From an uncultured Spirochaetota bacterium (lineage in GTDB: Bacteria; Spirochaetota; Spirochaetia; SZUA-6; Fen-1364), in NCBI GenBank assembly GCA_963734545.1, contig CAVTHO010000008.1, positions 544,001 through 608,000 of the forward strand: 64,000 bases of DNA. The letters are read 5' to 3'. This document shows, piece by piece, positions 6,075-61,136 of this stretch (positions are counted from its first letter, which is position 1; each line of letters begins with the position of its first letter). The position numbers and the translations under genes were made by a program. Below the pieces are notes generated by a model. It saw nothing but the letters and a program-made list of their open reading frames with translations. It did no database searches and was not told the DNA's origin.

Positions 6075-6090
6075 AGGGGAGCGGCAATCA

Positions 6091-10367: not shown

Positions 10368-10397
10368 GCGGCGCGCGGGTGCGCGCAGGAAAATGAA

Positions 10398-10421
10398 GCG
10401 CGCCGGGTCGCCCCGGCGTGC
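10398..10421. terminator. GC-rich hairpin between convergent genes
   Basis: GCGCGCCGGG-TCGC-CCCGGCGTGC. Confidence 0.5.
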
Positions 10422-10426
10422 CCGGT

Positions 10427-10777: not shown

Positions 10778-10830
10778 GCTCTGTTTCTCCTTCTCCGTTT
10801 TATCTTTGGCCCAAGCCCTTCCTGCAACAA

Positions 10831-10859
10831 GGCCGCTGCCGGGAACCCCGGCAGCGGCC
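10831..10859 (-). terminator. Hairpin after DUF4332 gene
   Basis: GGCCGCTGCCGGG-AAC-CCCGGCAGCGGCC perfect 13-bp stem. Confidence 0.6.
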
Positions 10860-10866
10860 CGCGTGA

Positions 10867-11283: not shown

Positions 11284-11430
11284 GCATGCACCTCCCTATC
11301 GTGAATTCGTTCATGATACGCCCGGACAGAAGGAAACGCAAGAATTATGTTTTCGGGTTGCCAGAATGGGCAATCGCTTCTATAGTAAGTCGATGGTCCA
11401 GGAGCGCGCTTCCTGGAGAGGAGAGGTCAC

Positions 11431-12999
<1,569 letters not shown>

Positions 13000-43974: not shown

Positions 43975-44139
43975 GGGTCGGAATATAACATAAGGAACGG
44001 GCTCCCGGCGCGCCGGCAAACGGCGGGCCGGCAACCGACCGTCGGCTTGCCGTTCGTCGGTTGGGCCGAGCTATTCTCGCATTGCCTCCCGCAGAAACAA
44101 TTCGTATACATTAACGATGATATATAGGAAGGAACCCAC

Positions 44140-44592
44140 ATGAAGAAACCGGGTGTGCTTCTTGTCCTGCTTCTTTCGACGGCCCTTCCCCTGGCTGCCC
44201 AGTCAAACCAGCTTCTCGATCAGCTCCTGGATCAGCCGGCCGCGAGCTTCGGCGAGGTGGTCTACATGACACTGTCCGCCGCGAAGCTCGTGCCGGAGAC
44301 CGCCACCCCGGCGGAGGCGCTGGAGGCGCTCCAGCAGCAGAACTGGAAGGTCCGAATCCTCCCGGCAGATGCCCCGATCCCCCTCGGGGACTACGCATTC
44401 CTGCTCATGAAGGCTTTCAAGCTCTCGGGGGGCATCTTCTACAGCCTGTTCCCCGGGCCCCGCTACGCCGTCCGTGAGCTGGGCTACATCAGGGTCATCA
44501 GCACCGATGCCCGTCCCAATCGAAACCTCTCGGGTGAAGAGGCGGTGCACATCCTGGGCAACCTGATGGCGCGCAAGGAGGGCTCCTCATGA
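44140..44592 (+). CDS. Array gene A1: secreted protein with SLH-like motifs
   Basis: Signal peptide ending LAA-Q; DAPIPLGDYAFLLMKA and NLSGEEAVHIL resemble SLH repeats. Confidence 0.75.
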   Translation: MKKPGVLLVLLLSTALPLAAQSNQLLDQLLDQPAASFGEVVYMTLSAAKLVPETATPAEALEALQQQNWKVRILPADAPIPLGDYAFLLMKAFKLSGGIFYSLFPGPRYAVRELGYIRVISTDARPNRNLSGEEAVHILGNLMARKEGSS

Positions 44593-45917
44593 AAGCGTGG
44601 CGCACACTGGCGATCATCGCTGCACTCGCCCTGGCGGGCGCGGCGGACCTCAGCGGGATGGACTTCGATTTCGGCGGCTTCGTGGAAAACTCAAGCACTC
44701 CCTCGGTGGCCCTGGACGCCAAGAACCCCGTGTGGGCCATGGACCAGAAGGACAGGCTGGCCCTCTGGGCGGAGATGCATTTCAACCCGCAGCTTTCCCT
44801 CACCATCCAGGGCAGTTATGCCTTCTCCCTGGATCTGCCCTATCTGTTCGACGTTGATGCGCTGAGGCTGGACTGGAAGATACTTCCTTCCCTGCGTGCC
44901 AGCCTGGGCAGGTTCGTCTTCTCGGACTTCACGGGCCACGTTCTGAATCACAAGCTGGACGGGGTGCTGTTCGGCGTGGACTTCCCTTTCATGGTGCTGA
45001 GCGCGGGGGCGGGGTTCTCGGGACTCGTGCTCAAGCCCTCCTCCCTGATCCTCATGAGCCGCTCGGACACCGCCGACCAGTCTGACAACGGGGTCATCCT
45101 GGCTGCCCCCCGGCTGATCGAGAAGCTGGAGGTGCTCTTCCCCAACCTTCTGCCCCGCCAGGACCTGACGGTGTCGGTGGTCCTGCAGCAGGACTTCCGT
45201 CCCAGCGGCTCCCTCATCCAGGAGGGCGAGCAGCAGCAGTTCGTCGCGGGCGCATCGGGGGGGAGACTGACCAGCGAGTACTTCGGGCTGGGGGTCTCGG
45301 GGGCCATCGTCTCCGCCCTGTACTACGACGCATTCTTCTATTACAGCCTTGGCAGCACTCTCTCCTATGTGGCGGACCCCGCTTCGGGCACCGGCTCCTC
45401 CTACCAGTACGAAGCGATCCAGGCTTTCCTGGGCGGCATAGGGCTTCGCTACTACAACGAGGCGCTTTTGTCCTCCCGCGCGGAGCTGCGGGCCGTCATC
45501 TCCAGCGGAGATGCGGACAACAGCACATACCTGGAGGGCAACAGCGCGGGGGCATCGACGATCTTCATGCCCATTTCCCAGGAGACCCTCGGGCTGGCCT
45601 TTCAGCCCCAGCTGGGCAACCTGCTCATCCTCACCGCCAGCTATTCACTGAAGCCGGCGAGCCCGCTTCAGCTCATGGTGAAGGGGCAGTCCTTCCTCAG
45701 GCCGACCACGGGCGCCATATCGGCCCTGGGCATAGACCCGGCCTCCAATGCGCTGTACCTGGGGACCGAGATCGACGGCATCGTCAACTTCAGGCCTTTC
45801 TCCGACCTGGGCACCGCCCTTTCGCTGGGGTTCTTCCTGCCCAACAAGAGCGCGTTCACGGGCCAGGCCTCCCTGCCCGTTCTGGCCGGGCGGCTGGAGG
45901 TTTCTCTCAGCTTCTGA
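44589..45917 (+). CDS. Array gene B1: predicted outer-membrane beta-barrel protein
   Basis: Signal peptide; alternating amphipathic strands; C-terminal beta-signal GRLEVSLSF. Confidence 0.75.
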   Translation: MKAWRTLAIIAALALAGAADLSGMDFDFGGFVENSSTPSVALDAKNPVWAMDQKDRLALWAEMHFNPQLSLTIQGSYAFSLDLPYLFDVDALRLDWKILPSLRASLGRFVFSDFTGHVLNHKLDGVLFGVDFPFMVLSAGAGFSGLVLKPSSLILMSRSDTADQSDNGVILAAPRLIEKLEVLFPNLLPRQDLTVSVVLQQDFRPSGSLIQEGEQQQFVAGASGGRLTSEYFGLGVSGAIVSALYYDAFFYYSLGSTLSYVADPASGTGSSYQYEAIQAFLGGIGLRYYNEALLSSRAELRAVISSGDADNSTYLEGNSAGASTIFMPISQETLGLAFQPQLGNLLILTASYSLKPASPLQLMVKGQSFLRPTTGAISALGIDPASNALYLGTEIDGIVNFRPFSDLGTALSLGFFLPNKSAFTGQASLPVLAGRLEVSLSF

Positions 45918-45977
45918 AAGTGGTGGGAGGTTTTTCCGGGTTTCTGAGATATGCTTAAGATGCAGGAGTACGAATAT

Positions 45978-46628
45978 ATGAAACGATTTATATTGACTGT
46001 CGCGATGGCGTTGGCGCTCGCGCCGGTTTTGTTTTCTCAAACCCAGGCAGTAGTCAAAGAGTTCAAGGGCAAGGTGGAGATCAAGGCAGGCGGAGGCGAG
46101 TGGCAGCCGGTGGCAGCGGGCATGAAGCTGGACACGGGGGCCTCGATCTCCACGGGCTTCAGCTCCACCGCGGTGCTTGACCTGGGCACCTCGACGCTGA
46201 AGGTGGCCCCGCTGACCCGCATGCAGCTTGTGGAGCTGATCGCCCGACAGGGCAGCGTCTCCACCACCCTTGCGCTGAAGGTGGGCAGGGTCAACGCGGA
46301 AGTGAAGACCGCCCCGGGGCTCAAGCAGGACTTCACGCTGAAAGGGCCGCAGGCCACCGCAGCGGTGCGCGGCACGGAGTTCGAGTTCGACGGGGTCAGC
46401 GTGAAGGTGATCAACGGCTTGGTGTTCTTCTCCAACAACCAGGGCCAGGGTCGGGGAGTGGGAGCCGGTGAGCAGAGCCAGACCAACGGCACCCAGATTC
46501 CCACTACCGGAGAGCAGGAGAACGAGACCAACACGAGCGTCCAGCCGCACACCGCCCCGGGAGGGACAACCCTTCCGCCGTCGGCCGTGCCTCCGGCGCC
46601 CGCCACCGTGACCATCAGATGGCAGTAG
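45978..46628 (+). CDS. Array gene C1: secreted FecR-domain protein
   Basis: Signal peptide; GKVEIK, ISTGFSS.A.L, ATAAVRGTEF (FecR signature); Pro/Thr-rich tail. Confidence 0.85.
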   Translation: MKRFILTVAMALALAPVLFSQTQAVVKEFKGKVEIKAGGGEWQPVAAGMKLDTGASISTGFSSTAVLDLGTSTLKVAPLTRMQLVELIARQGSVSTTLALKVGRVNAEVKTAPGLKQDFTLKGPQATAAVRGTEFEFDGVSVKVINGLVFFSNNQGQGRGVGAGEQSQTNGTQIPTTGEQENETNTSVQPHTAPGGTTLPPSAVPPAPATVTIRWQ

Positions 46629-46649
46629 ACTGAGATCCGGGAGAAGAAC

Positions 46650-47855
46650 ATGAAAGCACACATTCTGACAAGATCCACGGCGAGAATAGCCGTGATCATG
46701 ATATTGAGCGCAGCAAGCCTTGTACTCGCCGGCTGCTTTTACATGCCGGGGGTGAGCGGCAGGCCGGCAAAGGCCGGTGTCAGCATAGGCAGATCGCTGC
46801 TGCCTGCGAGCGTGTCATCTGTCGCGGTCATCGTAGGCGGGCCCGGCATGGAGACCATCGCCGCCCAGTACCCCGTGGGCACCACTTCGGCGACGCTGAC
46901 AGTGCCTTCAGGGGTCGCGCGCACCTTCACCGTGCTGGCCAACACCAAGTCGGTGACATTCCGAGACGATGTCACGGTAGACCTCGCTCCGGATGAGACA
47001 AAGGAGATTGTCCTTACCCCCACCCTGTCCGCCTCGCAGATCATCATCCCGGACCAATTGAGCGGCGTTGTTGCGCAGATATCCGATATGAACGGAACTG
47101 GATGGACCGCGCCTTCCATGCCCTCTGCGTACGACGTGGATTTCGACGATCAGGGTCGGATATATGTGGTGAACAGCATCAGCGCCATCGCTGTCATGAA
47201 CGATATTTCGGACGCCGCTCCGATCTCGATCTTCGACCCCAGCCAGGCACAGATACTCTCGATCGCCGTGGACCGGCCGCGCGGCCTGCTGTATTGGATC
47301 AACTATAACGGTGTAATCTACAGAGTGCCGATTACCCCTACAATGTCGGACACCCCGGTGCCGATTGACGTATCCGGAGTATTACCGCAGATGTACTCCA
47401 ATGGGATTGCCGTGGATTCGGATGGCTTTGTCTATGTGGCGGCAACCTCACCCACTTACGCGGTACTGAAGATCGACCCGAACAAGCCACAGGTCGTGGC
47501 CAGTTCCACCTACTCATTCGGCGACCCATGGGACGTCCTGGTGAAAGGGGACTTCATCTACGTCAGTGACTATACGGCCAGGCAGATCGTTCGTCTTACC
47601 AAGAACCTCGATTTCGTGGATTCTTTCTCCGGCCCGGCCTCGGACCCATTCCTGGGACCCGAGCGGTTTGTTGCGATCTTGAACAAGCCGATCACCCTCA
47701 TCGACGAGCAAGATATCTATCAAGACCTGAAGGACCGGATCGTCTCCTTCGGCGACATGACAGGCGCAGGCTGGACGACCTACGGATCGACAGCACCCGC
47801 CTCGGGCTCGGGAGGGCCGGGTCTGTTCCTCTTCTTCCGCAACAACCTGGGCTGA
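46650..47855 (+). CDS. Array gene D1: lipoprotein, beta-sandwich plus NHL-like beta-propeller
   Basis: Lipobox VLAG-C; YDVDFDDQGRIYV, GIAVDSDGFVYV, PWDVLV..DFIYVSD blades. Confidence 0.8.
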   Translation: MKAHILTRSTARIAVIMILSAASLVLAGCFYMPGVSGRPAKAGVSIGRSLLPASVSSVAVIVGGPGMETIAAQYPVGTTSATLTVPSGVARTFTVLANTKSVTFRDDVTVDLAPDETKEIVLTPTLSASQIIIPDQLSGVVAQISDMNGTGWTAPSMPSAYDVDFDDQGRIYVVNSISAIAVMNDISDAAPISIFDPSQAQILSIAVDRPRGLLYWINYNGVIYRVPITPTMSDTPVPIDVSGVLPQMYSNGIAVDSDGFVYVAATSPTYAVLKIDPNKPQVVASSTYSFGDPWDVLVKGDFIYVSDYTARQIVRLTKNLDFVDSFSGPASDPFLGPERFVAILNKPITLIDEQDIYQDLKDRIVSFGDMTGAGWTTYGSTAPASGSGGPGLFLFFRNNLG

Positions 47856-47875
47856 CGGGCGGGCGTGGCGGCCTG

Positions 47876-49693
47876 ATGGCTGATGAGCAATACATTGCCG
47901 CGCATCTCGCCGTCTATCCCGGGAACCGGGGAACTGTGCTCGTCTCGAATCGAAGCGCACGTCGTGCCGACATGCTGGAGGAGCAGCTATACGGCATCCT
48001 GAGGCAGGCGGATCGATTCGACACAATCGCCGGCCATACAAAAAGGCTCTTCGCCGCGGGCTGGGAGGATGACGGATCCGGGTTCATCGCATCCGCGTTC
48101 CGGGACCTCATTGCCCGCGGGCTCATGGTTTCAAAAAGCACATTCCTGGACAGTGTCCTGGACAAAGCGGGTGGGAGTGAAGCACCTCCGTCCGTGAGGT
48201 CCGTCGCTCTCACCACCCGGGACAGGCTGCCGCAGCTGCAGCGATGCCTTCGCGGATTCATCCGGAACAACGAGACGCACGGACGTAACGTGGACTACCT
48301 GGTCATGGATGACACCCGAACCGAAGACCAGGGGGCAAAGATGGGCGCGGTCCTCGGCACCTTCGCCGCTGCAGGAGCGAAGCTCTTCTACGCCGGGAGG
48401 GAAGAAAAGGCGGCCTACTTGCGCGCGCTGGTCCAGGCAGGGGGACCGGACGGGCTGCCGGCAGATGTCGTGAAGTTCTGCCTGGCCGGGGATGACGGGG
48501 ACTGGCCCACTTTCGGCGCGAATCGGAATGCCATCCTGCTGGCCGCTGCCGGAGAATTGTTTGTCATGTGTGATGATGACACGGCGTACGAGGCGGTTGC
48601 CTGCGGGGAGCCCGACACCACCCTTGCCCTCACATCGCTCAATGATCCGACCGTCCTTCGATTTTTCGGAGATCGCGCTGAATTGACCGCCGCAGTGCAC
48701 ACGGCGGATGTCGGCATCCTCTCCTGCCACGAGAAGCTGCTGGGACGATCCATCTCCGGCTGCATGTCGTGCATGGGGCCGGAGTGTACGCTCGATGTGG
48801 ATCGAATTGGCGCTGAATCCGCGCACAGGCTCTCCCGGCGGCCCGGATTGGTGAGAGCCACCATGTCAGGCTATTGGGGCGATTCCGGTATGGGCTCACC
48901 GCACGCGGCCCTCGAGCTCCTGGGAGAATCCAGGAAAGCCGTCATGCGCGCGAAGGCGGAATATGTCCGTGCCACGACCAGCAGAGAAGTCTTCCGCAGC
49001 GCCCCTCGGTACACAATCAGCGATGGCTCGCTGTTCATGACCATGCACACCGGATACGACAATCGAGGGCTTCTTCCCCCCTTCCTTCCGCTCGGCAGGA
49101 ATGAAGATGGGCTCTTCTCCCTGACATTGCATGCATGTATGGAGGGGGCGCTTGTCGGACATCTCCCGCTTGCCGTTCATCATGCACCGCCTGAATTGCG
49201 CCGCTTTCCGCAAGGGGCTTTTCTCAACCCCGCTCCAGGGATCTCCGATGTTATCGCGGCGGCGATGACATCCTTTGCTCCCTCCCCGGGAGCTCGAAGC
49301 GCATCAGACAGGCTGGTGGCCCTGGGAAGACATCTCGTGGACTTCAGCAGTCAGGAGACGAAGGATTTCGAGGACCAACTCATGAGTTCGTGGCTGTCCG
49401 CGACGAGTCACTACATCGGCTTCCTGGAGCACCTTCTGAATCTGCACAAAAGGCAGCCCGAATACTGGGCGAATGACGTGCAGTCTTTGATCGAGAATCT
49501 GAAGGATTTCGTCGTCCACGGATCCCCCGCTGTTCCTTCCGAGCTCCATGACAATCAGCCTGTCGAGCAGGCAAAAGAGTCATGCAAACGCCTCGTGCGC
49601 AAGTTCGGTGAGCTGCTTTATTGGTGGCCGGTCATCAACGGCGCCGCAAGACGGCTCAATGAGAGCGACACACGCCTCGCGCGGCGCGTCTAG
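47876..49693 (+). CDS. Array gene E1: GT-A (GT2-like) glycosyltransferase with N-terminal PqqD/RRE-like domain
   Basis: TTRDRLPQLQRCL, YLVMDD, FGANRNAILL, VMCDDD, RNEDG; N-terminus ends AFRDLIARGLMV. Confidence 0.7.
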   Translation: MADEQYIAAHLAVYPGNRGTVLVSNRSARRADMLEEQLYGILRQADRFDTIAGHTKRLFAAGWEDDGSGFIASAFRDLIARGLMVSKSTFLDSVLDKAGGSEAPPSVRSVALTTRDRLPQLQRCLRGFIRNNETHGRNVDYLVMDDTRTEDQGAKMGAVLGTFAAAGAKLFYAGREEKAAYLRALVQAGGPDGLPADVVKFCLAGDDGDWPTFGANRNAILLAAAGELFVMCDDDTAYEAVACGEPDTTLALTSLNDPTVLRFFGDRAELTAAVHTADVGILSCHEKLLGRSISGCMSCMGPECTLDVDRIGAESAHRLSRRPGLVRATMSGYWGDSGMGSPHAALELLGESRKAVMRAKAEYVRATTSREVFRSAPRYTISDGSLFMTMHTGYDNRGLLPPFLPLGRNEDGLFSLTLHACMEGALVGHLPLAVHHAPPELRRFPQGAFLNPAPGISDVIAAAMTSFAPSPGARSASDRLVALGRHLVDFSSQETKDFEDQLMSSWLSATSHYIGFLEHLLNLHKRQPEYWANDVQSLIENLKDFVVHGSPAVPSELHDNQPVEQAKESCKRLVRKFGELLYWWPVINGAARRLNESDTRLARRV

Positions 49694-49760
49694 CGCGTTC
49701 ACGGGCCAGGCCTCCCTGCCTGTTCTGGCCGGGCGGTTGGAGCTTTCCCTGAGTTTCTGA
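49692..49760 (+). repeat. Orphan copy of the last ~69 bp of gene B fused to the E1 stop codon
   Basis: AGCGCGTTCACGGGCCAGGCC...AGTTTCTGA matches the B1 and B2 3' ends (SAFTGQASLPVLAGRLE.SLSF). Confidence 0.9.
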
Positions 49761-49790
49761 GATATACTTGGAATTGCAGGAGTGACAGCC

Positions 49791-50441
49791 ATGAAACGTT
49801 ATCTATTGATTGTCGTGATGGCGCTGGCGCTCGCGCCGGTTCTGTTTTCTCAAACCCAGGCAGTGGTCAAAGAGTTCAAGGGCAAGGTGGAGATCAAGGC
49901 CAGTGGAGGAGAGTGGCAGCCGGTGGCAGCGGGCATGAAGCTGGACACGGGGGCCTCGATCTCCACGGGCTTCAGCTCCACCGCGCTGCTTGACCTGGGC
50001 ACCTCGACGCTGAAGGTGGCCCCGCTGACCCGCATGCAGCTGGTGGAGCTGATTGCCCGACAGGGCAGCGTCTCCACCACCCTTGCGCTGAAGGTGGGCA
50101 AGGTGAACGCGGAAGTGAAGACCGCCCCGGGGCTCAAGCAGGACTTCACGCTGAAAGGGCCGCAGGCCACCGCGGCGGTGCGCGGCACGGAGTTCGAGTT
50201 CGACGGGGTCAGCGTGAAGGTGATCAACGGCCTGGTGTTCTTCTCCAACAACCAGGGCCAGGGTCGGGGGGTGGGAGCAGGGGAGCAGAGCTCGACCAGC
50301 GGCACGCAGATTCCCACCAGCGGAGAGCAGGAGAACGAGACCAATACGAGCGTCCAGCCGCACACCTCCGCGGGAGGGACGACCCTTCCGCCGTCGGCCG
50401 TGCCTCCGGCGCCCGCCAACGTGACCATCAGATGGCAGTAG
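49791..50441 (+). CDS. Array gene C2: secreted FecR-domain protein
   Basis: Near-identical to C1 and C3. Confidence 0.85.
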   Translation: MKRYLLIVVMALALAPVLFSQTQAVVKEFKGKVEIKASGGEWQPVAAGMKLDTGASISTGFSSTALLDLGTSTLKVAPLTRMQLVELIARQGSVSTTLALKVGKVNAEVKTAPGLKQDFTLKGPQATAAVRGTEFEFDGVSVKVINGLVFFSNNQGQGRGVGAGEQSSTSGTQIPTSGEQENETNTSVQPHTSAGGTTLPPSAVPPAPANVTIRWQ

Positions 50442-50461
50442 ATGAGATCCGGGAGAAGAAC

Positions 50462-51641
50462 ATGAAAGCACAAACGTTGAAATCATCCGGGGCGAAAATG
50501 GCCGCGGTTGTCATTTTATGCGCGGCGGGTCTTGCGCTCACGAACTGCTTTTACACGCCTGGAGTGTCTGGAGACAACGCCCGGACAGGCATAGCCCTGC
50601 CCAAGTACGTTGCCGCGAACACCGTCTCGCTGGCCCTGATCGTGGGCGGTCCGGGGATGGACCCCATATATACCAGCTACACGACCATCCCCCCCAGCAT
50701 CAGCATCGAGGTTCCATCGGGCCTTGCGAGGACATTCACCGTGCTGCTGAACAGCCCTTCCGCCACCCTTCGGGGCGTGGCAACGGTAGACCTGCAGCCG
50801 GGAGAGTCCAAAGACATCACGGTCAACCCGACGGTGGCGGGCACGCAAATCATCGTCCCTGATAACTACAATTCCCGCCTGGTGCAGATCTCCGATATGA
50901 GCGGGACTGGATGGACCGACGCTGTCAATTACCTCGCCGTACGACGTCGATTTCGACGATCAGGGCCGAGTATATGTCGCGTACCCGAACTGTGCGGGTG
51001 GCCCTGGCGTCATACGGATCAACGATATCACAGATACGAGCTTGACTACGCTCACCGGCGTCACGGCAACGAATATCCGGTCGCTCGCCATGGACCTGAC
51101 ACGCGGCCTGCTGTATTACACGAACGGCAGCACTCTCTGGAGAATGCAGGTGACCCCGACGCAGGGCCCTGAAACGCCCGTAGATCCGTCAGGCTTATTG
51201 GGCAGCTTTTATACACAAGGGATCGCCGCGGATTCGGATGGTTTTATCTATATGGCGAGAACCTCCCCCTCAGTCGCCGTGCTGAAGATCGATCCCCGTG
51301 TGCCGGGAATTGTGAAGACCTACGTCGGCTCGCTCATCAACCCCTGGGACGTCCTGGTGAATGGCGACTACGTCTATGTGAGCGACTACACGGGCAAGCA
51401 GATCGTTCGCCTTACCAGGAACCTTGATTTCGTGGATTCGTTCTCCGGCCCGGCCTCGGATCCATTCCTGGGACCCGAGCGGTTCGTGGCGATCCTGAAC
51501 AAACCGATTACCGTCATCGACGAGGGCGGTTCCGGAGGCCCTGACAGGCTTGTCTCATTCAACGACATGACCGGTGCGGGCTGGACGCCCTACGGATCCC
51601 ATGGAGGGGGGCCAGGCCAGTTCGTGTTCTTCCTTTGCTGA
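50462..51641 (+). CDS. Array gene D2: variable beta-propeller lipoprotein, +1 frameshift near 50917
   Basis: Lipobox LTN-C; PYDVDFDDQGRVY restored by a one-base shift; shares DPFLGPERFVAILNK with D1. Confidence 0.75.
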
Positions 51642-51664
51642 AGAACGGGCACCACGGCTTGATG

Positions 51665-53479
51665 ATGGATGAGCAGTATATCGCGGCACCTGTCGCCGCG
51701 TATCCTGCGGATAAAGGACATGTCCTCATCTCCAACCGGAACACAGGCCGTCCCGATGTATTGTCAGGGCAGTTGTTCGGCATCCTGAGACAGGCGGACC
51801 GATTCGACACCATTGCCGGCCATGTAAAAAGGCTTTTCGCTGCGGGCTGGGAGGATGACGGATCCGGATTCATCGAATCCGCGTTCCGTGAGCTGATTTC
51901 CCACGGGCTCCTGGTGCCGAAAAGCGCCTTCCTGAGGGGCCTCCTCGAAATGGGCGCCGGATGCGAGGCTCCTCCGACCGTCACCTCGGTGATCGTGACG
52001 ACGCGCGACCGGATCCCTCAACTCCAGCGGTGTCTTGTTGGATTCATCGAAAACACCAGGAAGCACGGCCGCAGCGTGGACTACCTGGTCATCGACAATT
52101 CAAGAAACGAAAACCAGCGCGTGAAAATCACTGGCGTCCTCACTCCATTCGCCGCGGGGGGCGTGAAAATCCATTACGCGGGGAGAGAGGAGAAATCACG
52201 CTTCAAGATTGAGCTGGTTCAGGCAGGGTCAGCGGAAGGACTGCCGGATGATATCGTGGACTTCTGCCTGTTCGGTGACGAGGGTTTCGCGCAGACCTAC
52301 GGAGCCAATCGGAATGCGCTCCTCCTGGACACCACGGGAGAATTGATCGTGATGACCGATGATGACACGCTGTGCCAGCCAGCCGTCCTTGGAGAATCGG
52401 CGCCCACCCTCGCGCTCAGCTCGATGAAGGACCCGGCGGTCACCCGCTTCCATGCCGACAGAAGGCAATTGGTGCGGTCGGTGCGAACCACCGACGTCGA
52501 TATTCTCTCCTGGCATGAGAAAGTGCTGGGGCGCTCGATCGCCGGATGCATGTCGGCCCTCGGATCGGATTCCGCGCTCGACGTGGAATGCATCACACCC
52601 GAATCCGCGCATTTCTTCGGGAAAGCATTAAAAGTCGTGAGGGCCTCCGCGTCGGGACACTGGGGAGATGCGGGAATGGATTCACCCTACCTGCTTCTCG
52701 AGCTGTCGGGAAAATCGCGGGATCTTCTCATGCGCTCGAAGGAGCAGTACACGCAGGCCGGGGAGAGCAGGGAGATCTTTCGGAGCGTCCCGTGCTGCAC
52801 AATCAGCGACAATTCGGTTTTCATGGCCATCAACGCCGGAATTGACAACCGTTCGCTCCTGCCCCCCTTCCTTCCGGTCGGCAGGAACGAAGACGGGATC
52901 TTTGCCATGACCCTGCGTATCTGCGCGCAGGACGCGCTCATCGGCCATATCCCCCTTGCCGTGCTTCACTCACCGCAGGAAGCGCGGCGCTATGAGCAAG
53001 GCGGCAGTCCAATTGCGGCCCCGAGGCTGGCGGAAATCCTGTCGGCGATCATGAGCACATTCAACCCATCTCCGGGGCACGAGACCGTTTCCCAGAGGCT
53101 CTCCGACCTTGGAAAGCTCCTGGTCGATGTCGGCTCCCTGAAGATCGAAGATTTCACAGAACACGTCGAAACGGTCTGGGCCGCGGCGGCGAGTCGTTAT
53201 ATCGGCCTTCTCGAATCCCTGCTCGATCTGCACCGTGGCAAGCCGGATTACTGGGCGGAGGATGTCCTGTCCTTCATTGAAAGGCTCACCGATTTCACCG
53301 TACACAAGTCCGCAGCAGCTCCCCGCGAGCTTCTGGAAACGCAAACCCCCGAGCAGGCAGTGGAAGTCTGCCGCCGCGTGGTGCGTAGATTCGGCGAGCT
53401 CCTGCAATGGTGGCCGGTGATCTACGGCGCTGCAAAGAAGCTCCGTGATGCCGACAAACGCCTCGTGCGGCGGGTTTGA
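51665..53479 (+). CDS. Array gene E2: RRE-like plus GT-A glycosyltransferase
   Basis: Full-length paralog of E1; TTRDR, YGANRN, MTDDD, RNEDG. Confidence 0.72.
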   Translation: MDEQYIAAPVAAYPADKGHVLISNRNTGRPDVLSGQLFGILRQADRFDTIAGHVKRLFAAGWEDDGSGFIESAFRELISHGLLVPKSAFLRGLLEMGAGCEAPPTVTSVIVTTRDRIPQLQRCLVGFIENTRKHGRSVDYLVIDNSRNENQRVKITGVLTPFAAGGVKIHYAGREEKSRFKIELVQAGSAEGLPDDIVDFCLFGDEGFAQTYGANRNALLLDTTGELIVMTDDDTLCQPAVLGESAPTLALSSMKDPAVTRFHADRRQLVRSVRTTDVDILSWHEKVLGRSIAGCMSALGSDSALDVECITPESAHFFGKALKVVRASASGHWGDAGMDSPYLLLELSGKSRDLLMRSKEQYTQAGESREIFRSVPCCTISDNSVFMAINAGIDNRSLLPPFLPVGRNEDGIFAMTLRICAQDALIGHIPLAVLHSPQEARRYEQGGSPIAAPRLAEILSAIMSTFNPSPGHETVSQRLSDLGKLLVDVGSLKIEDFTEHVETVWAAAASRYIGLLESLLDLHRGKPDYWAEDVLSFIERLTDFTVHKSAAAPRELLETQTPEQAVEVCRRVVRRFGELLQWWPVIYGAAKKLRDADKRLVRRV

Positions 53480-53542
53480 GCCCTCTTGCGCATACCATGA
53501 GTTTGCACTAAAGATAGCATCATATAGAAGAAAGGAGCCTCC

Positions 53543-53995
53543 ATGAAGAAACCGGGTGTGCTTCTTGTCCTGCTTCTTTCGACGGCCCTTCCCCTGGCTG
53601 CCCAGTCAAATCAGCTTCTCGATCAGCTCCTGGATCAGCCGGCCGCGAGCTTCGGCGAGGTGGTCTACATGACACTGTCCGCCGCGAAGCTCGTGCCGGA
53701 GACCGCCACCCCGGCGGAGGCGCTGGAGGCCCTCCAGCAGCAGAACTGGAAGGTCCGAATCCTCCCGGCAGAAGCCCCGATCCCCCTCGGGGACTACGCG
53801 TTCCTGCTCATGAAGGCTTTCAAGCTCTCCGGGGGCATCTTCTACAGCCTCTTCCCCGGGCCCCGCTACGCCGTCCGTGAGCTGGGCTACCTCAGGGTCA
53901 TCACCACCGATGCCCGACCCAATCGAAACCTCTCGGGTGAAGAGGCGGTGCGCATCCTGGGCAACCTGATGGCGCGCAAGGAGGGCTCCTCATGA
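53543..53995 (+). CDS. Array gene A2: secreted SLH-like protein
   Basis: Differs from A1 at four residues; AAGGAG RBS. Confidence 0.75.
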   Translation: MKKPGVLLVLLLSTALPLAAQSNQLLDQLLDQPAASFGEVVYMTLSAAKLVPETATPAEALEALQQQNWKVRILPAEAPIPLGDYAFLLMKAFKLSGGIFYSLFPGPRYAVRELGYLRVITTDARPNRNLSGEEAVRILGNLMARKEGSS

Positions 53996-55320
53996 AAGCG
54001 TGGCGCACACTGGCGATCATCGCTGCACTCTCCCTGGCGGGCGCGGCGGACCTCAGCGGGATGGACTTCGATTTCGGCGGCTTCGTGGAAAACTCAAGCA
54101 CTCCCTCGGTGGCCCTGGACGCCAAGAACCCCGTGTGGGCCATGGACCAGAAGGACAGGCTGGCCCTCTGGGCGGAGATGCATTTCAACCCGCAGCTTTC
54201 CCTCACCATCCAGGGCAGTTATGCCTTCTCCCTGGATCTGCCCTATCTGTTCGACGTTGATGCGCTGAGGCTGGACTGGAAGATACTTCCTTCCCTGCGT
54301 GCCAGCCTGGGCAGGTTCGTCTTCTCGGACTTCACGGGCCACGTTCTGAATCACAAGCTGGACGGGGTGCTGTTCGGCCTGGACTTCCCTTTCATGGTGC
54401 TGAGCGCGGGGGCGGGTTTTTCGGGACTCGTGCTCAAGCCCTCCTCCCTGATCCTCATGAGCCGCTCGGACACCGCCGACCAGTCTGACAACGGGGTCAT
54501 CCTGGCTGCCCCCCGGCTGATCGAGAAGCTGGAGGTGCTCTTCCCCAACCTTCTTCCCCGCCAGGACCTGACGGTGTCGGTGGTCCTGCAGCAGGACTTC
54601 CGTCCCAGCGGCTCCCTCATCCAGGAGGGCGAGCAGCAGCAGTTCGTCGCGGGCGCATCGGGGGGGAGACTGACCAGCGAGTACTTCGGGCTGGGGGTCT
54701 CGGGGGCCATCGTCTCCGCCCTGTACTACGACGCATTCTTCTATTACAGCCTTGGCAGCACTCTCTCCTATGTGGCGGACCCCGCTTCGGGCACCGGCTC
54801 CTCCTACCAGTACGAGGCAATCCAGGCTTTCCTGGGCGGCATAGGGCTGCGCTACTACAACGAGGCGCTTTTGTCCTCCCGCGCGGAGCTGCGGGCCGTC
54901 ATCTCCAGCGGAGATGCGGACAACAGCACATACCTGGAGGGCAACAGCGCGGGGGCATCGACGATCTTCATGCCCATTTCCCAGGAGACCCTCGGGCTGG
55001 CCTTTCAGCCCCAGCTGGGCAACCTGCTCATCCTCACCGCCAGCTACTCACTGAAGCCGGCGAGCCCGCTCCAGCTCATGGTGAAGGGGCAGTCCTTCCT
55101 CAGGCCGACCACGGGGGCCATTTCGGTTCTAGGAATAGATTCTGCTTCCAATGCGCTGTACCTGGGGACCGAGGTCGACGGGATCGTCAACTTCAGGCCT
55201 CTCTCCGATCTGGGCACCGCCCTTTCGCTGGGGTTCTTCCTGCCCAACAAGAGCGCGTTCACGGGCCAGGCCTCCCTGCCTGTCCTGGCCGGGCGGCTGG
55301 AGGTTTCCTTGAGTTTCTGA
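53992..55320 (+). CDS. Array gene B2: predicted outer-membrane beta-barrel
   Basis: Same length as B1 (442 aa) with a handful of substitutions. Confidence 0.75.
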   Translation: MKAWRTLAIIAALSLAGAADLSGMDFDFGGFVENSSTPSVALDAKNPVWAMDQKDRLALWAEMHFNPQLSLTIQGSYAFSLDLPYLFDVDALRLDWKILPSLRASLGRFVFSDFTGHVLNHKLDGVLFGLDFPFMVLSAGAGFSGLVLKPSSLILMSRSDTADQSDNGVILAAPRLIEKLEVLFPNLLPRQDLTVSVVLQQDFRPSGSLIQEGEQQQFVAGASGGRLTSEYFGLGVSGAIVSALYYDAFFYYSLGSTLSYVADPASGTGSSYQYEAIQAFLGGIGLRYYNEALLSSRAELRAVISSGDADNSTYLEGNSAGASTIFMPISQETLGLAFQPQLGNLLILTASYSLKPASPLQLMVKGQSFLRPTTGAISVLGIDSASNALYLGTEVDGIVNFRPLSDLGTALSLGFFLPNKSAFTGQASLPVLAGRLEVSLSF

Positions 55321-55351
55321 GCTATACTTGGAAGTGCAGGGAGTGACTGCC

Positions 55352-56002
55352 ATGAAACGTTACCTATTGATTGTCGTGATGGCCTTGGCGCTCACGCCGG
55401 TTTTGTTTTCTCAGACCCAGGCAGTGGTCAAAGAGTTCAAGGGCAAGGTGGAGATCAAGGCAGGCGGAGGCGAGTGGCAGCCGGTGGCAGCGGGCATGAA
55501 GCTGGACACGGGGGCCTCGATCTCCACGGGCTTCAGCTCCACTGCGGTGCTTGACCTGGGCACCTCCACGCTGAAGGTGGCCCCGCTGACCCGCATGCAG
55601 CTTGTGGAGCTGATCGCCCGACAGGGCAGCGTCTCCACGACCCTTGCGCTGAAGGTGGGCAGGGTGAACGCGGAAGTGAAGACCGCCCCGGGGCTCAAGC
55701 AGGACTTCACGCTGAAGGGGCCGCAGGCCACCGCCGCGGTGCGCGGCACGGAGTTCGAGTTCGACGGGGTCAGCGTGAAGGTGATCAACGGCCTGGTGTT
55801 CTTCTCCAACAACCAGGGCCAGGGCCGTGGGGTGGGGGCAGGGGAGCAGAGCTCGACCAGCGGCACGCAGATTCCCACCAGCGGAGAGCAGGAAAACGAG
55901 ACCAACACGAGCGTGCAGCCGCACACCACTACGGGAGGGACAGCCCTTCCGCCGTCGGCCGTGCCACCGGCCTCCGCCACCGTGACCATCACATGGCAGT
56001 AG
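55352..56002 (+). CDS. Array gene C3: secreted FecR-domain protein
   Basis: Near-identical to C1 and C2; ends VTITWQ. Confidence 0.85.
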   Translation: MKRYLLIVVMALALTPVLFSQTQAVVKEFKGKVEIKAGGGEWQPVAAGMKLDTGASISTGFSSTAVLDLGTSTLKVAPLTRMQLVELIARQGSVSTTLALKVGRVNAEVKTAPGLKQDFTLKGPQATAAVRGTEFEFDGVSVKVINGLVFFSNNQGQGRGVGAGEQSSTSGTQIPTSGEQENETNTSVQPHTTTGGTALPPSAVPPASATVTITWQ

Positions 56003-56024
56003 ATGGAGAGTAGGGAGCAGCCAG

Positions 56025-57227
56025 ATGAAAACACAAATGTTCCGAGCATCTGTGGCGAGACTCGCCGCGGTTATCCTAGTGGGCGCGGCGAGCCTTGTGC
56101 TCTGCGAGCTGCTTTTACATGCCGGGAGTCAACGGCAAGTCTGCAAAGGCCGGCATCAGCGTGAACAGGTCGGCTGCTGCCCTCGAACCTGACGTCGATC
56201 GCGCTCATCGTGGGCGGGCCCGGCATGGAGACCATTGCCACCCAGTACTCCCTGGGCACCACCTCGGCGACGCTGACCGTTCCCTCAGGAGTCGCGCGCA
56301 CCTTCACGGTGCTGGCGAACACCGCGTCGGTGACGTTCCGAGGACGATGTCACGGTTGACCTCGCGCCGGACGAGACAAAGGAAATTGACCTGACTCCCA
56401 CGCTGTTTGCCACTCAGATCGTCGTCCCGGACTATCTCAATTATCCGGCTCGTGCAGATCTCCGACATGAAGGGGACCGGATGGACCGCGGTCGAGGATC
56501 CGACCTCGGGTCTAACCCACACGATGTTGATTTCGACGCTGAAGGTCGAATCTATGTGGCGAGACTAACTCCTCGAGGTATCCTGTGGATCGACGATATC
56601 ACCAACGGGACTTTTAACCCTGCTCAGCGGTTTCGTGGGGACGGACATACAGTCGCGTCGCCATGGACCGGGAAACGGGCCTTCTCTATTACGTGGGCTA
56701 ACTGTGAGTAGCCACGAGTCGTTGATGAGCTCCACAGAGAGACGTGATTTCGGGCCCGGACGAGCTGGTTGATCTGAGCAGCGAGGTCTGAATCAGTACC
56801 AGGGGATTGCCGTGGACTCGGATGGCTTTGTCTATGTTGTGAATAACCCACTACCCTGAAGTACTGAAGATCAATCCCAATCCGAACCCATCAAGTCCGT
56901 CGTGGGTAGCCAGCTACGCATCTCAACTACCCGTGTGACGTCCTGGTAAATGGCGACTACGTCTATGTCAGCGATCAGGCGGATGCGAAGATCGTTCGAC
57001 TTACGAAAGACCTTCCGTTCCCGGTTGAGTTCTTCGGCCCTGGCTCGGATCCATTCCTGGGACCCGAACGGTTCGTCGCGATCCTGAACAAGCAGATCAC
57101 CGTCATCGACGAGTGGAGTGCGAACGATGACAGGCTGGTCTCCTTCGGCGACATGATGGAGCGGGCTGGACGACCTATGGCACGCGTCCGGTTCGAACAG
57201 GGCCAGTTCCGGTTCATCTGGTACTAT
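56025..57227 (+). pseudogene. Array gene D3: lipoprotein, multiply frameshifted
   Basis: SC-FYMPG, GGPGMETIA, HDVDFDAEGRIYV and DPFLGPERFVAILNK fragments spread over several frames. Confidence 0.7.
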
Positions 57228-58360
57228 AATCCGCGTTCGGGAGCGATCTCTCATGGGCTCCTGGTGAAGGAGAGCGCCTTCCGGTCCCTCTCTCGTCGAA
57301 AAGACAAGCGAGCAGGGACCGCTGCCGCCCATCACTTCAGTGATCGTCACGACACGGGACCGGATCCCTGAACTCCAGCGGTGCCTTGCAAGCTATATCG
57401 AGAGAAACGAGACGTTCGATCGCCGGCCCGAATACATTGTCCTCGACGATTCGCGGCAGCCGGGGACAGGCAGAGAGAATGGCGGAGATCGCTCATCCCC
57501 CTCTCGGCGAAGGGAACGCGGATTTCCTACGCGGGCATGGAAGAAAAGGCGCGGTTCGCGGATGAGCTCATGCGCGCGGCAAAGGGCGAAGGGCTCCCGG
57601 GAGACGTCGTCTCCTTTGCCCTGTTCGGCGATGAAGCCTACACGCGCACCGTGGGAGCCAATCGGAACGCGCTCCTCCTGGCCGCGCCGGGGGAACTCTG
57701 CGTCATGATAGACGATGACACGGTGAGCCGGACGGCCGTCCTCGAGGAAACGGACGCACACCTCGCGCTCAGCGCTTTAAAGGACCCGACTGTCTCCCGT
57801 TTCTACGCAGACAGAAAGCAGCTGGAGGATTCGGTGCGCCCCGTCGACGTCGATATTCTCTCCTGCCACGAGAAGATGCTGGGACGCTCGATCGCCGGAT
57901 GCGTATCGTGCCTTGGCCCCGATTCCGAGCTCGACGTGGATCGCCTTGCCCCGGAGTCTGTCCTCTTCTTCGGAAGCGGATCAAAGGTGGTGAAAGCCAC
58001 CGCGACGGGATTCTGGGGAGATTCGGGAATGGACTTCGCCCCACCGGGTCCTGGAGCTGATGGGAGAATCCCGGGACCAGGTCATGCGGTCGAGGAAACT
58101 GTACGCCCGAGCCAGGGAAAGCCGGGAGATCTTTCGCGGCGTGCCCCGCTACATGATCGGCGACGGCGCCGTGTTCATGCCCATGAACGCCGGGGTCGAC
58201 AACCGCTCGCTGCCGCCCTTCCTTCCGGTGGGCACTCGGACGGGATCTTCGCAATGACCCTGCGTGTCTGCGCGGAGGAGGCGCTGATCGGCCACGTCCC
58301 CTTCGCCGTCCTGCACGCGCCTCTGGAGACGCGCCACTATGCGCAGAACGCCGCGATTGC
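57228..58360 (+). pseudogene. Array gene E3: glycosyltransferase fragment lacking N- and C-termini, frameshifted
   Basis: VTTRDRIPELQRCL, VGANRNALLL, MIDDD, NRSLPPFLPVG in shifting frames. Confidence 0.7.
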
Positions 58361-58393
58361 GGCTGGGGGCGCGGCAGCGCGCCCCGCTGCCGT

Positions 58394-61111
58394 CTACTTC
58401 GTCGTCAGGTTGAACACCCCGTCCCAGTTGGAGGCGGGCGGCTTTGCCTCGAACTCCTGGCATGACTTGATGTAGCGCTTGGCCGGGCCGTCCTCGGGCA
58501 CGAGCCGCAGCACTTCCCCAAGCGTCGCTCGCGCCTCCGCCCAGTCCTTGGCCTCGAACTGTTCGAGCCCTCTGTGGAAAATCTCCACTGCCTCCTCGAG
58601 GGATTTCTCCGCCCGGCCTTTCTCCTCGATGAGCTCGAACAGGCGGACGGGCTGGTTGATGCCCACCACGCGGACACGATCCAGCTTCCGCACCAGGAAG
58701 TCCTGCCCGAGCGACTCCTGCGTGATCTCGCTGATGAGGATCCACGTGCCGTACTGCTTGTTGACTCCCTCCAGCCGGGCGGCGAGGTTCACCGCGCTGC
58801 CCATCATCGTGTAGTCCATTCTCTGCGGCGTCCCCATGTTGCCCACGGTCATCTCGCCGGTGTTGATCCCGATGCGGGTATGGAGGGCCGAGGGCGCCAG
58901 CTTCTCCGTCAGGAACCTTTCGTTCAAGGCGACCTCCGCCCTCTTCATCCGGATGGCCGCCATGCAGGCGCGCCGCGCATGGTCGGGAAGGTCGAGCGGC
59001 GCTCCGAAGAACGAGATGATCGCATCCCCTTCGTACTTGTCGATCGTTCCCCGCAGCTCGAGGATGATGTCGCTCATCTCGGTGAGGTAGAGGTTGATGA
59101 GGTGCACGAGGGCTGTCGGGTCGAGCACCTCGGAGATCGTGGAGAATCCCCTGACGTCGGTGAACATGGCCGTCATGAATTTCTTCTCGCCGCCGAGGTT
59201 GAGCTTCTCCGGGTTGGCCAGGAGGTCGTTGATGACCTCGGAGGACAGGTAGTGTCCCCACGCGTTCCGCACGAAGCTCTTCTCCCGCTCCGTGCGGAGG
59301 AACTTGACCGCCGTGAGCGCGATGAACGTGAGAAAGACCGCGCCCACCGGAGTGAGCGTGTTGATGTAGATGCCCGTGAGCAGGAAGAGCGCGAGAAAAA
59401 GCCCGAAGAGCACGACGACGACGGCAGCGCCTACCACCAGCGAGCGGAGCGCGTCCATATTGAGGATGACGAAGGTCACGCCAAAGGAGAGGAGAAGAGC
59501 GAGGATGATGCCGTACCACCAGGGCCGCTGGTTGAGGAACTGGCCCTGGAGGATCGTGTTCACCACCGATGCGTGCGTGCCGACGTTCACGTATTCGCCG
59601 ACAAAGGGGTTGACGCCGATATCCGTGGTCGAGGTGGCGGTGACGCCGATGATGCAGAACGCGCCGGGAAGCTTCTTCGCAAGTACCTGGCGGGTCTCCA
59701 TCAGGTCGTCGTAGATCCCGTGCGTGTTGGAGAAGACCTTCGGTACCTCCGCCTTCACCGCTTCCGCGTTGGCGCGCGCGTCCTTCGCAAGGCCGCGGTT
59801 CGCCAGCACCTTGTCCACGTCCGCGAGGATGCTCTTCTCCGCGTCCCCGCCGAGGAATTGTCCGACGCCCTCGAAGAACGCCGCGCGGGCCTTTACGTAC
59901 GTGTCCATCTGGGCCAGGTCTCCGCCGCCGAGCATGTCCTTCTTGAGGCTCTCGCAGTAGGTGTACAGGTCCAGAAGCGCCGTCTCTCCCTTGTAGTAGG
60001 ACAGGTACCCGGATTGGTCCATGAGCTTGAGGTTGTACAGCAGGTCTTCCTCGAGCTGCCGGTGATAGACCAGCTTGTAGAAGCTCAGGTGCCGGAAGCT
60101 CTTGTCATACGTGTGCGGCGACCAGTTGATCATGAAAAGGCCCGTCAGGAGTCAGGGGGATCGTGATGTCCTTCTTTCCCTTTCCCGGCACGCTCGGCCC
60201 CCTTCAGCACGATCGCGCCCTTCTTGAGAATCGACCTGCGGGATTGCCGAGCCAGTCCAGGAGGGGCCGGAAGGCGAGCTGCGCCGAAGTACTTCCCGTT
60301 GAACGACTTGATCAGGTCGATGCGTCGCCTCACCCCGTCAGGGTCGACGATCACGTTGGGAAATCCCGCGCCCGCGCGCCCCCAGAGCCACGGGCAGGAA
60401 TGGCGGGATACAGCGACGCCGCCGTGCGCACGGAGCCTGACTTGCACGGTCACGTTGTTCAAAGCCAGGTTGTCCAGGGCGTACTGCGGCGAGCTCGGGA
60501 GCTCGCATTCGCGTCCGGCGTGTCGGGGGCAGCTACCGTGAGAAACGCCGTGCCGAAAAAACGGGCCGCCTGGCCGAGGTAGGCATCGTTGTCCCGCTCC
60601 ACGCTCTTCACCGTCGTCCAGGAGCCTGCTGCTTGCCCTGATCGGTGAGGCCTTGGAGGTCGGAGACGTATCGGGGCGCGTCCTTGAGCGGTATGTTTCC
60701 CGCACGGATGGCCTCGAAAAGCTGCTCGATGCTGGTCTGGATCTGGGCGAATTCCTGGTTGAAGGCATCCGGGACGTTCTGGCGCAGGACGAAGGTGTCC
60801 AATCCGCGAGGGCTCTTGTTCACGTACTCGATATCGAACATCGCGTAGCCGGCGCCGAACTCGCGCATGAGGATGAGTCCGTTCGCCATCACGTCGCGGC
60901 TCCATGGCCAGACGCCGACCTTGGTTATTGCCAGGTCATCCACATCCAGCAGGAGGATGGACTGGTTTTCGACCACCGCCGGCTTCACGTGCAGGAACAG
61001 GTCGTACACCCTCTGCTCGATCCTGTCCATGGCGCCGACTGCCGCCAGGACCGTGAACACGGCCACCACAAACGCCGGCACGATGAAATCGAAGCGGTTC
61101 TTCGCGAACAT
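58394..61111 (-). CDS. CHASE2-domain class III adenylate cyclase with several apparent frameshifts at ~60130-60630
   Basis: GVWPWSR, FDIEY, DPDGVRRR (CHASE2); three TMs; FTDVRGFS, DKYEGDA, DYTMMGSAVNLAARLE; Lys/Asp specificity residues indicate ATP; TPR-like tail. Confidence 0.88.
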
Positions 61112-61136
61112 GGCCACCTCCGCCGTTCACGCGCTC

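Follow-up and report, generated by a model that had tools for sequence, protein, structure and literature searches.

Bufferins are described, in the source passages devoted to them, as precursors of up to 367 aa with Sec signal peptides that are encoded just before their modifying enzyme, are recognised with the help of an RRE-type partner (RRE, RiPP recognition element; RiPP, a peptide made by the ribosome and modified after translation) and are modified before Sec export, and about 16% of the Buf2 precursors are said there to bear lipoprotein signal peptides instead of a classical leader (PMC12452194). Fusions of an RRE to a glycosyltransferase have also appeared in genome-mining surveys, whose main-text passages treat them as unprecedented among the known RiPP classes and as uncharacterised (PMC7470986, PMC12710340). 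The locus studied here lies in a 64,000-nt stretch of DNA (hereafter the window) in contig C8 of a metagenome-assembled genome (MAG) of an uncultured Spirochaetota bacterium (G000; 5.14 Mb, 63% G+C, 89% complete, 4.9% contamination), whose nearest protein relatives are in MAGs labelled Spirochaetia or Spirochaetota. It is a tandem array of five kinds of genes: A, coding for a small secreted protein, B, for a candidate outer-membrane barrel, C, for a FecR-domain protein, D, for a lipoprotein, and E, for a cytoplasmic enzyme predicted to join an RRE to a glycosyltransferase-like core. By analogy, the nearest published logic for the D-E pair would be that of the bufferin system.

As in the bufferin clusters (bufA, MNIO and DUF2063-RRE), to judge from the published passages on them, a candidate precursor with a signal peptide stands directly before the enzyme and an RRE-type domain is present. 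The enzyme here, however, is GT-A-like instead of being an MNIO oxidase and carries the RRE in its own chain, and the protein that it would modify, D, is a beta-propeller lipoprotein of 400 aa that lacks the Cys motifs. The fusions of the RRE-Finder surveys resemble E in having an N-terminal RRE and a GT2-type enzyme, and may include the E family, but the main-text passages on them give no function, substrate, family definition or lipoprotein partner (PMC7470986, PMC12710340); clusters of RRE-glycosyltransferases relevant to the novelty of E may appear in supplementary figures S6/S7 of PMC7470986. Our search of main texts in the literature found no published description of the E family or of a lipoprotein-E pairing. 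Nor did it find any paper on DUF6271, any on glycosyltransferases among the listings for an RRE combined with a lipoprotein signal peptide, or, judged by abstract, any related paper on a spirochaete lipoprotein with a glycosyltransferase and FecR.

A dedicated cytoplasmic glycosyltransferase encoded beside its exported target is familiar from HMW1C-HMW1, TibC-TibA, Aah-AIDA-I and the glycocin S-glycosyltransferases such as SunS. These enzymes belong to GT41, are heptosyltransferases, or are GT2 enzymes without an RRE, and to our knowledge none of them has a PqqD-like domain or occurs in tandem diversified lipoprotein arrays. Both RRE-guided modification of signal-peptide precursors and dedicated cytoplasmic glycosylation of exported proteins are thus known already, and the D-E pairing would be a variant of them.

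Domain make-up of E and its pairing with lipoproteins

In a first-pass annotation of this DNA, E was taken for a cytoplasmic glycosyltransferase, which agrees with the lack of a signal peptide and of any membrane helix (highest 19-residue hydropathy 1.27) and with the likeness of its core to glycosyltransferases. Our analysis predicts, however, a cytoplasmic enzyme that combines a PqqD-like RRE with a GT-A-like core, and not a plain glycosyltransferase. The RRE at its N-terminus, absent from the earlier annotation, is the strongest clue to the mechanism, for which an RRE-guided modification cassette is a better description than a glycosyltransferase working with a scaffold.

When 80 N-termini of the E family were compared by hhalign with 12 PqqD domains from spirochaete genomes, E residues ~7-88 matched over the whole domain (83 columns; hhalign 89.1%, P = 2.3e-6). 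All 30 control comparisons stayed at or below 1.0%; nine of them set either profile against the A to D family alignments or used the remainder of E, one took a reversed PqqD alignment and 20 took column shuffles. PqqD (PF05402) is the sole Pfam family below 1e-3 on the E N-terminus, with matches in two of the 80 full-length members (best 9.9e-5) and in one of 28 N-termini (2.9e-4), and E1 itself, the first copy in the window, has no direct Pfam match to PqqD. The presence of an RRE implies a peptide ligand.

Of the DxD motif in the core, D234 and D235 do not vary and the conservation of D233 reaches at least 90%, both among 80 and among 105 family members. GT2 matches 23 of the E relatives at E <= 0.01 and DUF6271 six in a Pfam scan that used 80 of the 105 sequences. 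An Atlas model of the homologue P0008 (55% identical to E1) has the DUF6271 and GT2 clusters as its nearest neighbours outside its own family (TM 0.52 and 0.40-0.43, respectively). The group transferred by the core would most likely be a sugar. The family is large, with 4321 representative clusters at E <= 1e-3 and 2699 at E <= 1e-30, and extends to Acidobacteriota, Myxococcota, Nitrospirota, Planctomycetota and others; no Pfam or NCBIfam model covers it, and no NCBIfam match to E is over its cut-off.

Some members of the family are fused to other domains. For instance, E-like regions stand behind adenylation and carrier-protein domains, KS-like/KR/carrier domains (ketosynthase and ketoreductase), a bare carrier protein or GT2 domains, or before an FkbM methyltransferase (P0080, P0084, P0102, P0111, P0116, P0146, P0127 and P0115). 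These fusions hint that the E family also acts on carrier-bound or glycan substrates. In Nannocystis (L038, L045 and L036, ~4000-11800), E lies behind genes that by eye are dehydrogenase-, aminotransferase- and methyltransferase-like; their N-termini suggest a dehydrogenase of the Glu/Leu/Phe/Val type, an aminotransferase of class IV and a pair of O-methyltransferase-like proteins, and the context is one of small molecules.

D had been described earlier as a lipoprotein with a beta-propeller, and both its lipobox and its domain matches bear this out. In D1, LVLAGC occupies residues 24-29, with Cys29 invariant in nine aligned D proteins, and the Pfam family SBBP (PF06739) matches well over its cut-off (30.5 versus 20.5 bits), NHL falling just under its own (19.7 versus 20); many D relatives carry precomputed NHL or SBBP matches. 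The lipobox of D2, LTNC, is unusual. The protein consists of a conserved N-terminal domain of ~110 aa, an NHL/SBBP-type propeller and a conserved C-terminus, and is most variable in its centre (residues ~181-300).

The pairing of E with lipoproteins extends beyond the window. We recorded the gene directly upstream of each E gene in the fetched loci, counting a lipoprotein when it ended within ~100 nt of the E start. A lipobox lipoprotein gene precedes 14 of the 20 spirochaete E genes in this way and none of the 23 from other phyla, where five upstream neighbours have a hydrophobic N-terminus without lipobox by a crude rule. Three kinds of partner are seen: the ~400-aa propeller protein D (G000, G002, G014 and G007), Ser/Thr-rich, Ig-like lipoproteins of ~250-270 aa (G008 and G010), and lipoproteins of 153 aa (G025 and G027). 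Their evident common features are the signal peptide and the lipobox only, and the RRE is the best conserved part among the E paralogues (0.71-0.80), as would be expected if an N-terminal feature common to the partners were read by the RRE. Behind one such lipoprotein in G008, an ordinary GT2 gene takes the place of E. In G025 (L017, 888-1871), a radical-SAM-like gene, recognised by eye from its Cys-rich N-terminus of the CxxxCxxC type, lies directly downstream of E, and this trio of 153-aa lipoprotein, E and radical-SAM-like gene would fit a RiPP-like cluster.

On the strength of the domain content and of the bufferin analogy, we tentatively propose that D and E form a substrate-enzyme cassette, in which E would bind the unexported pre-lipoprotein and modify it in the cytoplasm. 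The RRE would capture the still-unfolded product of the gene just upstream, probably with the signal-peptide or lipobox-proximal region as its leader; E would then modify it, and the modified D would be exported by Sec, lipidated and placed in the envelope. We infer an action of E on D, probably a glycosylation, ahead of export. A more elaborate picture, which we consider rather doubtful, has E as the founder of a large family, with thousands of sequence clusters in many phyla, in which leader recognition of the RiPP style is fused to a GT-A transferase, and which this spirochaete lineage would have redirected to whole lipoproteins. The lipoprotein signal peptide would be the leader for cytoplasmic glycosylation, the lipoprotein pathway itself would remove that leader, and the hypervariable propeller lipoproteins, with a separate enzyme for each, would make up a glycosylated surface coat that diversifies.

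Two evolutionary regimes within one array

Direct-repeat search, self-BLAST and tblastn all recover the order ABCDE, then CDE headed by a tail of B, then ABC with decayed D and E, in line with the repeats ABCDE, CDE and ABCD*E* recognised in the first-pass annotation. The CDE unit begins with the 3' end of B, and the duplication junction is therefore inside B. The two parts of the array differ strongly in conservation, as had been noted. Protein identities between copies reach 97% for A1/A2, 99% for B1/B2 and 94-95% for C, compared with 58% for E1/E2 and 50-57% for D1/D2. At the DNA level, 44117-47111 and 53519-56490 (A to C plus the 5' third of D) are 92.3% identical over 3009 nt, and 45849-49689 and 49692-53475 (B-tail, C, D and E) are 71.3% identical over 3897 nt; two further matches link 49692-51595 to 55252-57180 (76.8%) and 51876-52998 to 57228-58345 (71.3%).

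The phylogenies of C and E are organised differently. C copies of one genome fall together (100/98 for G002, 97/100 for G014), with branches of 0.013-0.024 for the three in the window, and A, B and C copies in general cluster by genome with 94-100% aa identity. The tree of E, in contrast, contains three cross-species lineages, namely G000_1 with G002_1 (100/100), G002_2 with G014_2 (95/96), and G000_2 with G002_3 and G014_1 (95/98). The dead pair D3/E3 of the window is nearest to the G014_2 pair and therefore represents the third lineage. D gives a star-like tree, whose terminal branches have about three times the length of those of E (median 0.63 versus 0.2).

Synonymous divergence (dS) tells the same two histories, with 0.05-0.17 between ABC copies and 0.8-1.3 between D or E copies. 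The ratio of nonsynonymous to synonymous divergence (dN/dS) is 0.10-0.24 for ABC, 0.35-0.39 for D and 0.27 for E, and hence the intact copies are under purifying selection; with these ratios (0.27-0.39) and dS near saturation, we found no support for gene-wide positive selection on D or E. The trees and the dS pattern together mean that ABC has been homogenised within genomes and that the D-E pairs are old paralogues. The homogenisation would have proceeded by gene conversion or re-copying within each genome, and at least three D-E lineages are older than the species. The high identity of units 1 and 3 covers the first ~460 nt of D as well and is lost beyond them, which locates the end of the conversion tract. 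Unequal crossing-over may add and remove units (ABCDE, CDE, DE and D), and the distal unit of the window genome has decayed. Third-position G+C, taken from the genes chosen in the gene map, in which C1 is displaced by an opposite-strand open reading frame (ORF), is 0.82-0.87 for A, B and C, against only 0.70-0.74 for D and E and mostly 0.77-0.90 for flanking genes.

In silent-cassette antigenic variation of the vls/vmp type, promoterless partial copies donate sequence to one expression site. We rejected such a system for this array, whose units are complete genes with their own starts, those headed by A or D having a conserved promoter-like element ahead of them, and whose intact copies are under purifying selection.

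Candidate roles of the D-E pair and of the ABC module

Several observations weigh against the proposed substrate-enzyme cassette. The profile search of whole E against PDB found nothing, and that of its N-terminus gave non-significant matches only (E 0.8-1.1), among them residues 15-82 of the radical SAM protein 5wgg (E 0.95); the GT2 cut-off of Pfam (23.3 bits) is not reached by E1 (14.0) or E2 (18.1). Six of the 20 spirochaete E genes lack an upstream lipoprotein, two of them following another E, two having unrelated neighbours and two being truncated relatives, and D genes without E occur at the array ends of G002, G014 and G007. Co-divergence of D and E, which the first-pass annotation had proposed as a check, is not significant (Mantel r 0.25, with 719 of 5040 permutations as high), and one D pair only (G000_2 + G002_3, 89/80) agrees with an E lineage. 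Moreover, D, a folded propeller of 401 aa, is far larger than usual RiPP substrates, and outside the spirochaetes the E family is found in contexts like those of nonribosomal peptide synthetases or of small-molecule enzymes, so that the ancestral E substrate may not have been a protein.

It is conceivable, if somewhat unlikely in our judgement, that D and E belong to one pathway without D being the substrate. The target tailored by E would then be a small molecule, or else a short peptide or lipid-linked glycan, much as may be the case for its relatives in biosynthetic clusters; D, as a periplasmic or surface lipoprotein, would bind, process or resist the product, and the barrel B may pass it through the outer membrane. 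The fusions of the E family to adenylation, carrier-protein, KS/KR, GT2 and FkbM methyltransferase domains speak for this arrangement, as do the Nannocystis neighbourhoods, the weak alginate-export and porin-like matches of B, the weak congruence of the D and E trees and the orphan D genes. However, a precursor gene of its own would not fit into the units, in which D and E are 20 nt apart and the 88 nt between E1 and C2 are occupied by the B remnant, and neither the array nor its surroundings contain a carrier-protein or adenylation gene. Partners of three unrelated architectures are also a poor fit to specific binding or processing, and an RRE implies a peptide ligand.

The genes A, B and C form a module of their own. 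A has no Pfam or NCBIfam family, and the SLH-like (S-layer homology) character first ascribed to it is doubtful: there is no Pfam SLH match at E <= 1, and hhalign against SLH domains of other spirochaetes gives 15.8% (P 0.0016), which is above the controls (1.9% or less) and yet not convincing. PDB matches of its profile to the Cnx1 G-domain (E 0.014-0.17) are taken as chance. Small SLH proteins of another kind are found in 16 of 201 spirochaete genomes (L076-L091); they measure ~175-230 aa and combine a signal peptide and a single clear SLH domain with a coiled-coil-like stretch and, at the C-terminus, a hydrophobic helix. By hidden Markov model (HMM) they have no relation to A, and the 3 kb analysed for each contain no B-like gene.

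B, with its signal peptide and C-terminal Phe, is a probable outer-membrane beta-barrel, weakly similar to OmpM and porins, and the earlier assignment as a barrel thus stands on weak matches. Alginate_exp scores 17.6 bits on B1, below the cut-off, and is precomputed on 12 of the 120 B relatives listed, and the family profile matches the start of the OmpM barrel (PDB 8bys/8bym) with E 6e-4 over ~95 residues only. In the passages on Veillonella VpOmpM1 (PDB 8BYM/8BYS), the 16-stranded barrel follows after residue ~100 (PMC10628300). The comparison extends to A, a small periplasmic protein encoded directly upstream with a 4-nt overlap. As described in those passages, however, OmpM unites an SLH domain and a coiled-coil stalk in a single chain, and here A and B are two genes, no SLH domain lies within B, and A has the doubtful SLH likeness given above. 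A preprint on tethering systems, in the part that concerns Spirochaetes, names OmpA as the sole such system there (10.1101/2021.05.31.446380).

C was correctly recognised as a FecR protein (PF04773, 31 bits versus a cut-off of 24). Among NCBIfam models it gives weak matches to Lsa33 and LipL45, far below the cut-offs. It shares the FecR domain with LipL45 and Lsa33 of Leptospira and with the LysM-FecR proteins of COG4254, which pair with CHASE2 kinases, and a CHASE2 cyclase adjoins the array; unlike these proteins, C has neither lipobox nor LysM domain, and the CHASE2 adjacency is positional and not kept in distant relatives.

A second, distant A-B-C module is present on contig C5 of the same genome (~146636-148910; L073, 12636-14910), with A 31-34% identical and B and C recovered by HMM (E 2.8e-14 and 4.7e-7). 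Behind it, in place of D and E, come a membrane protein of 235 aa and a DUF2207 protein. Apart from this module, no further copies of the B, C, D or E families were found in the genome by tblastn at E <= 1e-4. Like-for-like searches return 169 relatives of B, 73 of D and 33 of E. The ABC module without D/E on C5 and the wider B family make ABC an independent module, which is spirochaete-wide, belongs to the envelope and is separate from D-E.

This bears on the scheme of the first-pass annotation, in which ABC is a fixed envelope scaffold that displays interchangeable D proteins, each prepared by its own E, for surface display or sensing. We consider this scheme unlikely. D-E always stands behind C in the window, a lipoprotein with E (or GT2) is again found behind A-B-C in G008 and G027, the B relative P0246 is fused to a FecR domain and so links B with C, and the CHASE2 cyclase that flanks the array in four genomes recalls the FecR-CHASE2 pairing of Burkholderia operons, as given in the relevant passage of PMC5192318. 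However, ABC occurs without D/E on C5 and its B family far outnumbers E, D-E occurs without ABC (the D-E units of G002, and G010), and cyclase adjacency is not kept in G008 or G027, the cyclase near the C5 module being 6 kb upstream and of the HAMP type. A dedicated scaffold for D/E is therefore not what the gene distributions suggest. The alternatives considered here and the substrate-enzyme cassette partly overlap.

Layout of the array in the window and in related genomes

The features of the array are listed in Table 1. Several genes in it are damaged. D3 is readable only with several frame changes, and E3 has lost the N-terminal RRE and the C-terminal ~160 residues; A2, B2 and C3 of the same unit are intact, and the damage is hence decay and not sequencing noise. 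The third D/E pair thus consists of pseudogenes. The frameshift of D2 may be an assembly error rather than a real change, because the adjoining cyclase gene is split here but intact in G002. This CHASE2 adenylate/guanylate cyclase adjoins the array on the minus strand (58394-61117) and is broken into three overlapping frames (58394-60133, 60145-60768 and 60608-61117). In G002 it reads as a single open frame of ~900 aa, and in G014 the frame changes close to its 3' end; the breaks may be either indel errors of long-read assembly or real decay.

The promoter-like pattern ahead of A2 has a single match in the window and was missed by a generic promoter scan, which gave two sites versus 2.7 expected from shuffled sequence, i.e. 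no excess. The same element is present ahead of the A or D genes that start units in G002 and G014; units started by C carry a B remnant instead. Terminator-like sites number 20, about twofold the shuffled mean of 10.0 (standard deviation 3.0), and none is at a unit boundary.

Table 1. Features of the array, with positions counted in the window
Feature	Position	Strand	Basis or remark
Unit 1: A1 B1 C1 D1 E1	44140..49693
A1, 150-aa secreted protein, signal peptide, 4-nt overlap with B1	44140..44592	+	ORF/translation
B1, 442-aa outer-membrane beta-barrel candidate, signal peptide, C-terminal ...SLSF	44589..45917	+
C1, secreted FecR-domain protein, Thr/Pro-rich tail, likely start 45978	45951..46628	+
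D1, 401-aa lipoprotein, lipobox LAGC, Cys29	46650..47855	+
E1, predicted 605-aa cytoplasmic enzyme: PqqD-like RRE, GT-A-like core with DxD, C-terminal domain	47876..49693	+
E1 residues 7-88, PqqD-like / RiPP recognition element	47894..48139	+	hhalign
E1 DxD motif, D233-D234-D235	48572..48580	+	family alignment
Unit 2: B remnant (69 nt), C2 D2 E2	49692..53479
Remnant of last ~22 B codons	49692..49760	+	repeat family D11; tblastn B1 residues 421-442, 95%
C2, FecR-domain protein, likely start 49791	49782..50441	+
D2, lipoprotein paralogue, one frameshift near 50917-50925	50462..51641	+
E2, intact E1 paralogue (58% aa), all family-invariant residues kept	51662..53479	+
Promoter-like element TTGCGC, 17 nt, TAAAGA, ahead of A2	53486..53514	+
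Unit 3: A2 B2 C3 (53543-56002), then decayed D3 and E3	53543..~58345
A2	53543..53995	+
B2	53992..55320	+
C3, likely start 55352	55328..56002	+
D3 pseudogene, pieces in all three frames, stops	56025..57217	+	closest: distal D of G014
E3 pseudogene, residues ~79-444 of 605, frame changes	57246..58345	+	closest: distal E of G014

Three other species of the same genus carry this kind of array at the same chromosomal site, namely G002 (ABCDE ABCDE DE D), G014 (D ABCDE CDE) and G007 (ABCD*E D). The conserved synteny with variable D/E copy number for which the first-pass annotation had suggested a search thus exists in other genomes. Its statement that D and E always travel together behind C holds in the window and fails in these relatives, where D-E also directly follows E and lone D genes stand at array ends. 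Both flanks (DUF475/TerC and the CHASE2 cyclase) are common to the window, G002 and G014, and G007 matched the cyclase flank only. The E-to-C junction of G014 also holds a B-tail remnant, shorter than that of the window. In the more distant G008 and G027, A-B-C is followed by a shorter lipoprotein and E, or by E-E. In G014 (contig C8, ~313610-313700, L012), the orphan D upstream of A is preceded by a B-tail/C-leader remnant, which suggests that a C gene was deleted there. We considered the CHASE2 cyclase as a defining feature of the system and rejected it: it flanks the array in G000, G002, G014 and G007 but is not near the ABC loci of G008 and G027, and the cyclase nearest the C5 module has HAMP and not CHASE2.

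Public sequencing runs, among which none of RNA was listed for this sequence, yielded short Logan contigs, none of which spans the array; the best DNA run had 0.23 of the words, parts without cover being uninformative, and the D2 frameshift site has almost no cover in these contigs. One short contig bridges the E1/B-remnant junction (49487-49774, 1 mismatch) and may derive from the source sample. Single contigs of wetland runs, with 90% likeness and at low depth, join 44111/55291, 47793/58394 and 57232/58382. These joints may come from relatives with fewer units, e.g. with no A-B at the start or no E3 remnant, and would hint at copy-number variation.

Misassembly, through the collapse or chimeric joining of strains in the MAG, is highly improbable as the source of the array. 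It is true that the genome is incomplete and partly contaminated, that at least one flanking gene looks frameshifted and that the metagenome contigs hold alternative joints within the region. However, arrays of this kind occupy this site in the assemblies of three other species, G014 having the junction remnant too, the units differ by 8-29% in DNA and are therefore not collapsed copies, and a short contig, though possibly from the source sample, bridges the E1/B-tail junction. The locus is a genuine, recombining tandem array.

The domain finding in E and the evolutionary pattern are solid, and the function is a testable proposal. The carriers are uncultured wetland organisms, and the value of these results is therefore in leads for biochemistry and not in established biology. 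The array offers a clean natural case of a homogenised three-gene set beside gene pairs older than the species in the same operon. The weak likeness of B to OmpM raises the question whether a split relative of the OmpM tether is kept in some spirochaetes. If E modifies the upstream lipoprotein, RRE-guided modification of the RiPP style would extend from short peptides to full-size exported lipoproteins, and a function would come within reach for a family of ~4300 clusters that is unnamed in Pfam and NCBIfam.

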